From Orbicella franksi (Eukaryota): a stretch of 64,000 bases of DNA. Below the pieces are notes generated by a model. It saw only the letters and a program-made list of their open reading frames with translations, was not told the origin of the DNA and made no database searches. Every line of letters begins with the position of its first letter. Positions within the stretch are counted from its first letter, which is position 1. Location of the stretch: the NCBI GenBank assembly GCA_964199315.1, contig OZ116701.1, positions 32,798,001-32,862,000 of the forward strand. Reading direction: 5' to 3'. Shown here piece by piece: positions 56,979 to 64,000 of this stretch. A program made the position numbers and the translations under genes.

Positions 56979-57299
56979 ATAGCTACTTTATGATTCTAAA
57001 CATAATATTAATTTCCGTGTAAAGCTGTTCTTAACTTTACCAAACATGTCCGACCATAATTAAGACAAAAGCGGCAACTGCCGCCATCTGTTATAAGCCT
57101 GTTATTTGATTTTTATACGCCAACGAAATGAGAATTGAGTAGTGAGAAAAATGGGGGTACTAGCGCTCTTTACAAAAAAACGGCCTCAAACATTCCCTAC
57201 AAACCAAAAAAATGCTCACGCAGGCTCTATTTCGAAAAGTGCATTTTAAGGCCTCTCAGAGCAACTTCATTGAAAGCTCTCTCCTGAGCCTAGTTTATG

Positions 57300-57500
57300 T
57301 CTCCCAGCCTCTCTAGAAATCAAAAAATGCTTCTTCCAGGACTCACTTCGCAGACCCGTCTCATAGCTAAAAATGACCCTCTCAGCCCTCCTGAGAATCA
57401 AAAAATTACCTCGTCAGACACCTTTTCAGAATTAGCATAAAATAGCCCTCTCAGCCCTCCTGGGAATCAACAAATTGCCTCGCCAGAGCCCTTTTCTGAA
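57300..57500. repeat. ~70-bp tandem subterminal repeats (3 copies)
   Basis: CCCTCTCAGCCCTCCTG(A/G)GAATCAA(A/C)AAATT(A/G)CCTCG at 57377 and 57446; degenerate copy near 57301. Confidence 0.75.
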
Positions 57501-57595
57501 TTCTGAATTTTACTTAAACAGAAATCGCCCTTATTATATTGGGAATAATGAATATGAAAAATTATGAGAATAAAAAATTATCTAGCCATATTATA

Positions 57596-60500
57596 ATGGA
57601 GATGAATAAATCCGAATTGAATAAATTGACAAAAAAAAAAAAACAATTAGTTGATCTATTGTTACAAGATCAACAAAAATTAAGAAAGCCTATTCCGGTA
57701 CCACGCAAAAGTGTTAAGCAGATGGTGCATGATTATGAGGAAAATATAATTGTACCACCTCTTGAGTTTAGAGATAAACCGGTTCCAAAACCTCGAACAA
57801 TTAAACCTGTTCCATAACCAAGAACAAGAATAGTGGAATTACCTATTGGACCTATGTTTAAGATAGGAAAACCAGTAGCTAAACCTCGTGTTAAATCTAA
57901 AAAACCAATACCAGCTCCAAGAACTAAAATAACGCCCGTTAAGCTGGCTGTGAAAGATGCTGTTGAAACATATGAGATTGGTTTGAAAAATAAAAGTGAT
58001 CCGCTGGTTCAGTTGCCAAATACTAGACAAGCAATTAATCATCGTTTCAATAAATCTCACTGGGTAAAAAATAAAAATTTTAAATTTTATGAGTCCATGA
58101 AAGTGACTTTCATCAAAGAAGTACCTGATAATAAACAAAATGATGATGATGATGTTGAAGTTGAAATTGATGCTACCGGTGGTAAGCATTATTTGAAGTA
58201 TAAAACTGCTCATTTCAATAGTACTGAGCTAAGGCTGTTACTAACACCATTGAGTTAAATCAACAATTCAGTGAAAATTACTCAGGAGGAGATTTTGAAA
58301 AAGATCGCACAATGGCTATCAGAGGGTAGTGGCTGGATTATCGATAAAATTGATAACCATTATCTGAATATTATCAAATATAAACCAGTGAAAGATAAAT
58401 GATATATCCAGCTTCCAAAATGGTTGAGAAATTTGATAAAAGGTTTGATCAATATAAAAAAAATAAAGATAATGAATGCTTCCGATAATGACATATCAGG
58501 CATGTTAATCCACAAGAGAAAGATCCTCAGCGAATCAAGAAATCGGACAGATCACTTGTTAATAAGTTAGATTGTTCTAATGTCGAATTTCCTGTTAAAA
58601 TCAATGATTTCAATAAAATTGAAAAACAGAATAGTATCAGAACAAATGTATTTGGTTATGAAAACAAACAACCTTTTCCGATTTATGTGTCGAAAGTTTA
58701 ATGATAATTTGAATCTTCTATTGATAACTGAAAATGAAAATAAGCATTATGTGCTGATCAAAGATTTCAACAGATTGATGTTTAATCAAACAAAGCATAA
58801 AGAGAGAAAACACTTTTGTATGCACTGCCTTCAGTGTATCAGTTCAGAAGATATTCTAACTAAACATGAAACTGAGTGTCTTGTAATTAATGGTAAACAA
58901 GCTATTAAAATGCCAGAAAAAGGTGAGAAAGTAATTAATGTTTGAAAATTATCATAGACAGTTACAAGCACCATTTGTTATTTATGCTGATTTTGAAGCT
59001 ATCACTGAAAAAGTAGATTCATGTAAACCAAATGATAATGATTCATATACTGAAGCTTATCAAAAACATACCGATTGCGGGTATGGTTATAAAGTAGTTT
59101 GTGCATATGATGATAAATATACTACACCTGTCCAGTATTATCGCGGGCCAAATGCTGTGTATAAGTTTATGGAGAAAATGCTTGATGAGGTCAGATATTG
59201 TAAAAATACCATCAAATATAAGTTCAATAAACCATTCAAGATGACTCCTGCTGATAAAGAGAATTTCAAACAAGCAACAGAGTGCCATATTTGTGGCAAA
59301 AAGTACAATGAAGACGATGTGAGAGTAAGAGATCATTGTCATGTGACAGGTAAATACCGTGGATCAGCTCATGAAGCTTGCAATCTCAATTTTCAACTAA
59401 CAGATAAGATACCAGTGATATTTCATAATCTGAGAGGTTGTGATAGCCATTTTATCATGCAGCAGATTGGTCAGATAGCTAAAAATAACACCTACACTAA
59501 TAAGAAAGGAGAGAAAAAAGAAATAACTATCAATGCAATCCCGAATAATATAGAAAAATATATGGCTTTCATGCTTGGTTATAATCTTGTTTTTATTGAT
59601 AGTTTTCAGTTTATGAGTTCTAGTCTTGATAAACTAGTCAGTAATCTCCCAAGAGAATCATTTAAATATACATCTGAAGTTTCCAAGGGAAGAGCGCTTG
59701 ATCTGATGTCAAAGAAAGGTGTCTATCCTTATGACTACATGGATTCATTTGAAAAGTTTGATGAAACCAAGCTGCCAACAAAAGATCAATTTTATAGTAT
59801 ACTGAATGATGAACATATATCTGATGACGACTATAAACATGCCAAGCGTGTTTGGAAAGGATTTCAGCTCAAGAATATGGGTGAGTATCATGATCTATAT
59901 TTGATGTCTGATATTCTGTTACTGGCTGATGTATTTGAAAATTTCAGGAAAACATGCTTGGAATATTATAAATTAGATCCAGCACATTATTTTACTTCTC
60001 CTGGATTACCATGGGATGCTATGTTGAAAATGACTGACATTAAACTTGAACTAATGAGTGATATTGATGTTTCAATTTATTGAGAAGGGTATGCGTGAAG
60101 GAACAAGCTATATCGCCAACAGATTTGGTGAGGCAAATAACAAGTACATGAAATCATATGATAAAACAAAATCTTCAAAATACATCACTTATTTGGATGC
60201 AAATAACCTCTATGGTTGGGCTATGAGTCAGTATCTTCCAGCTGGTAAATTCAGATGGATGACAGACAAACAGATTAATAAATTAGATCTCAGTAAATAC
60301 ACAGATGATAGCAAAACAGGTCTTATTCTTGAAGTTGATCTTGAAAATCCTCATAAGCTTCATGATCTGCATAATGATTTTCCATTAGCTCCTGAACAGG
60401 TAAAAGTCACCGAAAATATGCTTTCAAAATATTGCCAGCAAATAAAAGATAAGTTTAATATCTCAATAGGGCAAGTGCATAAATTGATACCTACATTGAA

Positions 60501-61466
60501 CAAAAAAGAGAAATATGTCCTCCACCATCGGAATCTTCAATTATGTCTTGATTTGGGATTAAAACTAACCAAAATTCATCGTGTATTAAAATTCAATCAA
60601 CCACCCTGGTTGAAGAGCTATATATATTGATTTCAACACACAGAAGCGAACTAATGCTAAAAGTTCCTTTGACAAAGACTTCTTCAAACTTATGAATAAC
60701 TCAGTATTTGGTAAAACAATGCAAAATGTATGAAAACGGGTTGATGTCAGACTTGTCACTGATGAGAAGCAACATACTAAGCTTGCAAGTAAGCCCACTT
60801 ATGAGTTGTCAAAAATTTTCAATAAAAATCTGGTTGCTGTGCATAAAATCAAAGAAGTGCTAATCTTGAATAGACCTGCTTATATATGTTGGCACGTGTA
60901 TTTTGGATCTCAGTAAGACTTTGATGTACGATTTTCATTATAATTATATCAAACAAAAATACAAAACGAAAGCCAAGTTATTATTCACTGACACTGATAG
61001 TTTAACCTATGAAATTCGAACAAAAGATGTGTACATGGATTTTTGGAAGAATAAAGATAAGTTTGATAACAGTGATTACCAAGAAAACAGCAAATTCTAT
61101 GATAAAACAAACAAGAAGGTAATCAGAAAGTTCAAGGATGAAGCTGCTGGTCAAATAATAACAGAATTTGTTGGTCTTCGAAGTAAAATGTACTCTTACA
61201 TCAAAGAGAATGGCGAAAATGGTAAAACCGCGAAGGGAATCAAAAAAATTGTAATCAAAAAGAATATCAATCATGCTGATTACAAAAATACTCTCTTCAA
61301 TAATCAGCAAATGTATCATAAGATGAAGACAATCAGATCTAATTGTCATCAACTGGGCAGTTAGGAGTTAAATAAAGTATCACTATCATGTTTTGATGAT
61401 AAAAGATATCTTCATGACGGTGGTATTAATTCTTATAGTTGTGGTCAATATAAAATCAAAAATTAA
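57596..61466 (+). pseudogene. Protein-primed family B DNA polymerase (Polinton-type), multiply disrupted
   Basis: Pro/Lys-rich N-terminus, WLSEGSGW, ExoI PFVIYADFE, FHNLRGCDSH, KGVYPYDY, ExoIII-region YHDLYLMSDILLLADVFENFR, motif A YLDANNLYGWAM (60190), motif [11 protein letters not shown] (60686), motif C FTDTDS (60984), C-terminal NKVSLSCFDDKRY; roughly ten stops/frameshifts (e.g. 57815, ~58940, ~60070, ~60620, 61362). Confidence 0.93.
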
Positions 61467-62721: not shown

Positions 62722-63196
62722 ACAATTTATTGTACTTATCCTCAAACTTGTCGTATAATGGACACATGTCTATTATAATTTCATCGACAACTTTGATGTA
62801 ATCAAGGAATCGTTCATTATCGAATTCTAATCCTCTCAGGAATGACCTTATATCGGTCAATATTTTTCATATGATGTGTAAGCAAATTTGCACATCTCAA
62901 TCTTTCTCTTATAATTTTTAGCCTCGGTGAATGCGCTTAGAATAAGACCAGCACCTGATATTGTCCCAAGAAAATGGGGTTCAATGATGCAGCTCCCACT
63001 ATTGTTCCTGTTGCTATTAGTCCAACAGATCCAATTTTACATGCCAGGTCATTTTTTAAAAATATTTGTACGCCATCTGGAATAGCCAGTATTTTTTATG
63101 ATAATACCTTTATAATGCTTTCAACTCTGATATCTCAGCTTCGGTTAAATTGTTATCGGTATGATTAAAATTGAAAATAGTCTTTGATTCTTTCAT
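62708..63196 (-). pseudogene. Degenerate two-TM membrane protein (SLATT-like layout)
   Basis: MKESK..ELKAL*RYYHKKYWLFQMAYKYF*KNDLACKIGSVGLIATGTIVGAASLNPIFLG/fs/TISGAGLILSAFTEAKNYKRKIEMCKFAYTSYEKILTDIRSFLRG..KYNKLFTTE*. Confidence 0.55.
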
Positions 63197-63205
63197 ATAT
63201 ATGGT

Positions 63206-63698
63206 TTAGATAAGTTTTTTCATGAAGAAGTTGCTATAACCAACACCTTCCAATTCTCCATTACCAGTGATTGCGATGGTATAGCTTTCTGTATTTGCTG
63301 TCAATTGTGTTACAAAAAATAAAGTGAATGGTGTCCATTTGGTTCTAGATGTGGTGTCAAAATTTGTGATTTTCTTATTTGTTTGCTTATTATCTGCGAG
63401 ATTTGTGGAACGTAACCATACTGACACTCTTTCAAGACTTCTCAAACTGTCAATAAAATACATTTCATAGATTCCTGATTTGTTAACAATGTTAACAATA
63501 ATTTCATTATTGCTTGAAATGGAAAAATCTGCCGGATTTGACGTAACAGCTGATGATTGATCACCTGCAAATTTAACACTTTTTCATTGTTATGAACCAA
63601 ATCATGTGTGAACAAAAAACACAGTTTAACTTGTTCAACTTTTGTTTCAGACGGAAAAATCCACCTGTCCAACCTAATAATCCGTTTGAATAAGACAT
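63206..63698 (-). pseudogene. Degenerate beta-strand-rich ORF, possible fibre/spike head domain
   Basis: ATG at 63698; after a frameshift VKFAGDQSSAVTSNPADFSISSNNEIIVNIVNKSGIYEMYFID..WTPFTLFFVTQL..YTIAITGNGELEGVGYSNFFMKKLI*. Confidence 0.45.
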
Positions 63699-64000
63699 AT
63701 ATATGGTTTAGACTATATTTAATCTAATCCAAAATATGTTTTTAACTTTTTTTCTGCTGATACTACAGCATTAAATGCATCCCCACCTATTGCATAAGAG
63801 TTAGTTGTAAAACCCATTCTCACAAGATAAGCAGATTTAATTGAAAAGAAATGAATGTTTTCTGTCTCTTGGCTTTGGGGTTGTGCTTCATCGATTTTTT
63901 TCGGATCAATTCCAGCAATAGTTGTCAGTGCTTAATTTGTTTCCAACTTTGGTGTTCCAAATCAAGATCTGTTTGTTCACATATTTGGCATTATCTCCTG

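Follow-up and report, generated by a model that had tools for sequence, protein, structure and literature searches.

A dead Polinton copy in the Orbicella franksi genome, with a VLTF3-like gene and a putative promoter box at most gene starts of its family

Results

The locus and its genes

The DNA analysed in this study is a stretch of 64,000 nt from Orbicella franksi (the window; assembly GCA_964199315.1, contig OZ116701.1, G000:C4:32798001-32862000), and positions above 64000 continue the same numbering rightwards. Its right-hand part holds a dead copy from an AT-rich family of Polintons (polintoviruses), with an internal deletion and its right end lost; the features of the copy are listed in Table 1. 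The element begins at 57138 with AGTAGT, a hexamer that is identical at seven of the eight sister ends examined, and its left-end sequence has 36 matches across the genome. Past 58 kb of the window the GC content falls from about 0.40 to 0.30-0.33. Behind the pPolB pseudogene follow a zinc-finger-like open reading frame (ORF) (-), a Ser-rich ORF, a VLTF3-like gene (+), a SLATT-like gene (-), a short beta-rich gene (-) and the 3' end of a long fibre gene (-). An earlier note on this DNA had described the pseudogene and, behind it, three or four decayed genes with overlapping stops, namely a zinc-ribbon VLTF3-like protein, a two-helix SLATT-like protein, a beta-rich fibre-like protein and an ORF at the window edge (63720-64000). 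These genes were recovered, all of them broken; the edge ORF belongs to the long fibre gene, and the 3' ends of the convergent VLTF3-like and SLATT-like genes overlap by 14 nt. Two further small ORFs, the zinc-finger-like and the Ser-rich one, had been missed.

Table 1. Features of the Polinton copy, in window numbering (64000 = window edge). TIR, terminal inverted repeat.
Feature	Position	Strand	Remarks
Left TIR	57138..57490	+	right limit approximate; sister TIR is 350 bp
69-bp tandem repeat	57370-57502		inside/near left TIR
pPolB pseudogene	57596..61466	+	several frames; endonuclease VII-like insertion; TATCTA box at 57579
Two 18-bp palindromes, 58 bp apart	61553..61633	none	unit amplified to a satellite within other copies
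Small zinc-finger-like ORF, broken	61620..61778	-	start carries TATATATG; zinc-finger label by eye
Ser/Gln-rich ORF	61914..62127	+	frameshifted; shares the VLTF3 frame, with a stop between; TATCTA at 61901
VLTF3-like gene	62164..62721	+	4 pieces, 3 frameshifts; zinc ribbon and one cyclin-like helical domain
SLATT-like gene, 163 aa	62708..63196	-	two hydrophobic helices; 4 pieces, 3 frameshifts, 2 in-frame stops; TATCTA at 63212
Short putative C1q/TNF-fold head protein (beta-rich)	63206..63698	-	N-terminal motif shared with the long fibre; broken near start; last 125 codons open
Long fibre-like gene, 3' end	63719..64005	-	remainder deleted along with ATPase and capsid genes
DUF5679 and truncated PLA2 gene	69726-70742		beyond window

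To the right of the long-fibre remnant the sequence jumps to a pX-like/adenain (protease) region at 64296-65116, with a broken frame at 64458-65116 that is homologous to the candidate adenain of sister copy L008. An inserted long terminal repeat (LTR) retrotransposon follows at 65287-69654; its LTRs are 97.9% identical and no clear target site duplication (TSD) was seen at its insertion. The element breaks off within the PLA2-domain gene near 70742, about 6.7 kb past the window, where host G protein-coupled receptor (GPCR) genes resume; it lies inside the receptor cluster and not, as had been proposed, at its edge. The earlier note had pointed rightwards for the major capsid protein (MCP), penton, ATPase, integrase and a second TIR. 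The four genes were not detected in the 20 kb examined rightwards, no second TIR was found in 40 kb, and a genome-wide search gave no MCP match at this locus; the protease region was the part recovered. At the deletion junction, a stretch of about 290 bp (L001:7005-7295, window numbering 64005-64295; L numbers denote the loci compared) had no match in the family loci compared.

Class membership

Identity between the window copy and its closest sisters is about 89%. One decayed sister retains both TIRs (350 bp, 91%) and a 6-bp TSD, where the window copy has the left end alone, and carries the full Polinton layout in the order pPolB, zinc finger, VLTF3, SLATT, fibre, ATPase, minor capsid protein (mCP), MCP, protease, DUF5679, PLA2 and integrase. 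Two genes absent from the window copy are recognised in sister copies: an rve integrase with a chromodomain (L020; PF00665, E 1.4e-11) and an A32-like packaging ATPase (L016; PF04665, E 1.2e-12). PLA2 was matched in sister frames (E 5e-6) and adenain under the cut-off (L008; PF00770, E 0.066). In the sister copies, conserved ORFs whose size and position would suit are candidates for MCP and penton, both deleted here. An endonuclease VII-like domain lies within pPolB (PF02945, E 5e-7), and the pPolB label comes from family-B exonuclease and polymerase motifs seen by eye in the translation. Two results speak against the assignment: the polymerase itself gave no Pfam, PHROG or PDB match, and the MCP ORFs of the sister copies matched nothing in the libraries. 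PDB sequence searches in general returned nothing useful, and a Pfam search of the small ORF fragments of the window returned nothing significant. Taken as a whole, the identity of the element as a Polinton of known type is held with high confidence.

The element had been called a Polinton-like virus (PLV) in the earlier note. The pPolB-type gene and the rve integrase of the family speak against this identity and, together with the candidate adenain, mark it as a Polinton proper; PLVs mostly carry a helicase and a tyrosine recombinase where Polintons have pPolB and rve (PMC11131425).

Two further ORFs were seen in sister copies. A 469-aa tyrosine-recombinase ORF (PF00589, DUF3504; L005:5121-6527) splits the pPolB of one copy and is probably an inserted Crypton-like element. 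An HNH endonuclease ORF (PF13392, E 9e-16; L008:3701-4294) adjoins the integrase of another.

The VLTF3-like and SLATT-like genes and their linkage

The VLTF3-like protein has 33 database homologues. PF04947 was matched by 14 of the 22 that were aligned (best E 1.6e-9), among them homologue P0002 (35.2 bits, cut-off 25), to which the window pieces are 53-62% identical, and an Atlas search agrees with the label, so that this claim of the earlier note is borne out. Upstream, the junction between the Ser-rich ORF and VLTF3 carries a stop in six of the nine listed copies and is open in three, where the two are fused, and starts related to that of the zinc-finger-like ORF are present in sister copies.

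The SLATT-like gene, with 174 database homologues, is likewise real, and two hydrophobic segments are visible in its protein. Its SLATT label, read from sequence, is weakly supported: the Pfam SLATT model matched 10 of 30 members, all under the cut-off (best E 0.0024), which counts against the name.

Genome locus counts are lower bounds, as the top-scoring candidates alone were scored. The VLTF3 query gave at least 59 matches in at least 40 genomic loci and the close SLATT group at least 48 matches in at least 34 loci; among the matches listed, a close SLATT gene lies within 6 kb of VLTF3 at 30 of the 40. Metagenomes yielded 80 SLATT loci, some of which may belong to the species that the window comes from. 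After 11 that were too short had been set aside, 58 of the other 69 had a convergent short VLTF3, six a different gene of ~220 aa and five neither. In IMG/VR, SLATT was found on one 2.2-kb contig and the short VLTF3 in none of 85 candidate stretches. Distant SLATT relatives (24-31% identity) occur at ~100 other places in the genome; three of the four examined have Polinton-type neighbours (tblastn).

Distant SLATT-like genes, or similar ones with two helices, are also present in two or more other Polinton families of the genome that are richer in GC (L047-L054). In those of their stretches that were examined, VLTF3 had no match. A SLATT relative adjoins a ~220-aa gene at L091, L096/L046, L098, L123, L128 and L139, and the ~220-aa family is widespread.

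The beta-rich gene and the long fibre

The beta-rich gene has 10 database homologues, two of which begin with the N-terminal motif of the long fibre. It is single-copy in the genome; an unbroken homologue, 57% identical, occupies the same slot in L089. Its predicted model (pLDDT 75) gave APRIL/BAFF as top rows (Z 8.5, rmsd 3.0, 107 aligned) and C1q at Z 7.9, with unrelated jelly-rolls reaching 7.4, and it matched viral collagen and fibre heads at E 3e-5 to 6e-4, in keeping with the fibre-like label of the earlier note. The protein may be a short second vertex fibre sitting on the same penton anchor as the long fibre.

Could the small ORFs be chance fragments of decayed DNA? Each of them is broken in the window copy, and the C1q-fold ORF is present just once in the genome; however, 33, 174 and 10 database homologues (VLTF3, SLATT and C1q-fold) and the whole C1q-fold ORF in L089 refute this, and we give it practically no weight. 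Their conservation and linkage to the element, as the earlier note had supposed, stand.

A positioned box ahead of gene starts

Ahead of most starts of the family, by 14-19 nt, we observed a box with the core AT[C/G]TA, mostly TATCTA; it is most frequent at -18 to -15 relative to the ATG and is longer than TATATATG. Distinct upstream sequences with this core at -22..-8 were counted and compared with shuffle means. The box is present at pPolB in 3/3 (shuffle mean 0.3), at the Ser-rich ORF in 6/7 (0.6), at SLATT in 16/25 (1.9), at the fibre in 10/15 (1.1), at mCP in 8/9 (0.8), at MCP in 8/8 (0.6) and at DUF5679 in 4/8 (0.6). In the window copy, five of the six exact TATCTA sites lie 12-19 nt ahead of an ATG, versus 4 of the 31 that fall in host sequence. 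The shared start motif of the earlier note exists, but the virus-type early/late programme attached to it is not supported as stated, because the box precedes pPolB too.

These counts have to be weighed against several observations that do not favour a promoter read by VLTF3. The box is weak at the zinc-finger ORFs (3/6 and 2/4) and at the ATPase (4/14), and absent at pX (0/5) and at the protease (0/6, start uncertain). The VLTF3 start is not box-free (4/19 versus 1.4 expected, though 0/19 for strict TCTA), and the Ser-rich ORF, upstream of VLTF3 and fused to it in some copies, carries the box. The motif was defined after inspection of the very sequences counted. Copies of a given gene are related and not independent, so that the independent unit is the gene, with about seven unrelated genes bearing the box. 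In the VLTF3 model (mean pLDDT 67; zinc-ribbon part poorly predicted) the top fold matches of the helical domain are cyclin, Rb and TFIIB, all weak (Z <=6.9), viral VLTF3 proteins are also matched weakly, and no Foldseek E fell below 0.001. No VLTF2 or TBP partner was identified.

The palindrome unit and the surroundings

The 58-bp palindrome-bearing unit, present about twice in the window, forms satellite arrays in sister copies at G000:C13:23.17-23.53 Mb (L149-L151, L154). There, 173 units, 91-94% identical to the window unit, fill one 10-kb stretch, and contigs of two sequencing runs, their kind unrecorded, show several hundred times the neighbouring depth over the palindrome-unit bin. The arrays look like a Polinton-derived satellite; a literature search by title returned nothing of this kind.

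The remainder of the window (1-57137) and the DNA beyond 70742 hold a tandem cluster of single-exon class A GPCR genes of ~315 aa (7tm_1, E 1e-22), some copies broken. Other tandem repeats in the window lie at 3-1199 (200-bp unit) and 25668-26010 (116-bp unit). Contigs from RNA runs gave scattered pieces of 150-480 nt at low depth, whose strand and start are unreadable and which may be DNA; they were not used as evidence.

Discussion

The earlier note regarded the element as the best candidate for an undescribed system. It is a decayed member of a published class, because VLTF3 in coral polintoviruses has been published and SLATT and fibre appear in published legends, and its sister copies hold the canonical Polinton gene set. 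Stony-coral polintoviruses were reported with VLTF3 (in a subset), DUF5679 and collagen-like proteins (Stephens et al., 2024, PMC11131425), and they share core genes, rve integrase, DUF5679 and VLTF3 with the family described here. The text of that paper, figures lying outside the comparison, makes no mention of SLATT, fiber or late transcription, and the window copy differs as a deletion derivative. Adintoviruses, or Maverick-Polintons, have adenain, PolB, rve integrase, an FtsK-type ATPase and PLA2X (Starrett et al., 2021, PMC8502044). In lacking a PF03175 match the pPolB of the family is Beta-like, although PLA2 has been described as characteristic of Alpha virion modules. The legend of Fig. 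6 in the same paper names SLATT, VLTF and Fiber; it concerns MELD viruses with other replicases from mostly non-animal datasets, and co-occurrence is not readable from it. SLATT and VLTF3 are also both listed in a legend for Maverick-Polinton-related and other genomes (bioRxiv 10.64898/2026.06.19.733378), and the part of the text of PMC5499653 that was covered contains no mention of VLTF. No report of the box in animal Polintons was found in the literature text searched; figures and bioRxiv supplements were outside that search, so the motif or an identical gene map may be there.

Overall, we moderately favour the explanation that the locus is a dead Polinton copy whose family has a TATCTA-type box as a likely promoter, read with the help of its own VLTF3-like factor and probably by host Pol II. 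The box would be the putative promoter of most element genes, and the VLTF3-like protein, a zinc ribbon with one cyclin-like fold resembling half a TFIIB, would recognise it. The element has no RNA polymerase, and therefore a minimal TFIIB-like VLTF3 would likely direct host Pol II to the box. VLTF3 might then act as a single switch for replication and virion genes alike, because pPolB has the box while the VLTF3 start mostly lacks it. Both the promoter function and its recognition by VLTF3 are read from sequence, and that VLTF3 in particular reads the box is a tentative proposal, which we rate slightly short of an even chance. The protein may activate late transcription. Nucleocytoviricota VLTF3 (PF04947), including that of mriyaviruses (PMC11253617), has the Pfam match and the predicted fold in common with it. 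The family protein is ~180 aa long, versus 291 aa for the form in L046, and the two match weakly over just 36 columns, with no VLTF2 found.

Alternatively, the box could be a plain TATA- or initiator-like element used by host Pol II without VLTF3, which would then be cargo or use its cyclin-like fold to act on cell-cycle proteins of the host. The box is AT-rich and TATA-like, many starts end in TATATATG, cyclins and Rb are among the best fold matches of VLTF3, and the VLTF3 beside SLATT is replaced in some relatives. However, a C/G-containing core recurs at a fixed distance in about seven unrelated genes, and the GC-rich Polinton families of the genome, VLTF3-less in the stretches examined, show no box as judged by eye, without a formal count. 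We consider this alternative rather unlikely.

A different possibility is a virophage-like life, in which a co-infecting giant virus would supply the late transcription machinery that reads the box, as in mavirus and CroV, while the element's own VLTF3 tunes or competes with the helper factor. The late promoter of CroV and the promoter of mavirus are TCTA in an AT-rich setting (PMC8547959, PMC5294985), and this TCTA core is common to the box, which stands ahead of pPolB as well as of the capsid genes. In six of the 69 metagenome loci the slot adjoining SLATT holds the different ~220-aa gene, whose family has 709 homologues, many of them 222 aa long, and L096/L046 also has a full-length giant-virus-type VLTF3 near SLATT (291 aa; PF04947, E 1.7e-38). 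On the other side, a 4-6-mer in AT-rich DNA can arise by convergence, no helper virus was identified, and the long VLTF3 query had no match in the window genome. Neither Pfam nor PHROG gives the ~220-aa family a name, and its giant-virus origin is therefore presumed; the six contigs that carry it measure just 1.1-2.2 kb and hold no other clear Polinton gene. Mavirus, a virophage of protists, has a known helper, whereas the family described here encodes its own VLTF3, which fits autonomy equally well, and no helper is known for it. It is quite improbable, in our judgement, that the helper's machinery reads the box. The same low standing applies to the broader suggestion, drawn from these comparisons, of an animal Polinton lineage living like a virophage, with nearly all genes behind a CroV/mavirus-type late promoter, a minimal VLTF3 of its own and relatives that swap giant-virus genes into the slot. 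If true, this would tie a giant-virus helper, and possibly antiviral defence, to the endogenous polintoviruses of corals. In summary, the positioned promoter-like box together with a minimal VLTF3 offers a concrete handle on how animal Polintons may switch on their genes and on whether a giant-virus helper is needed.

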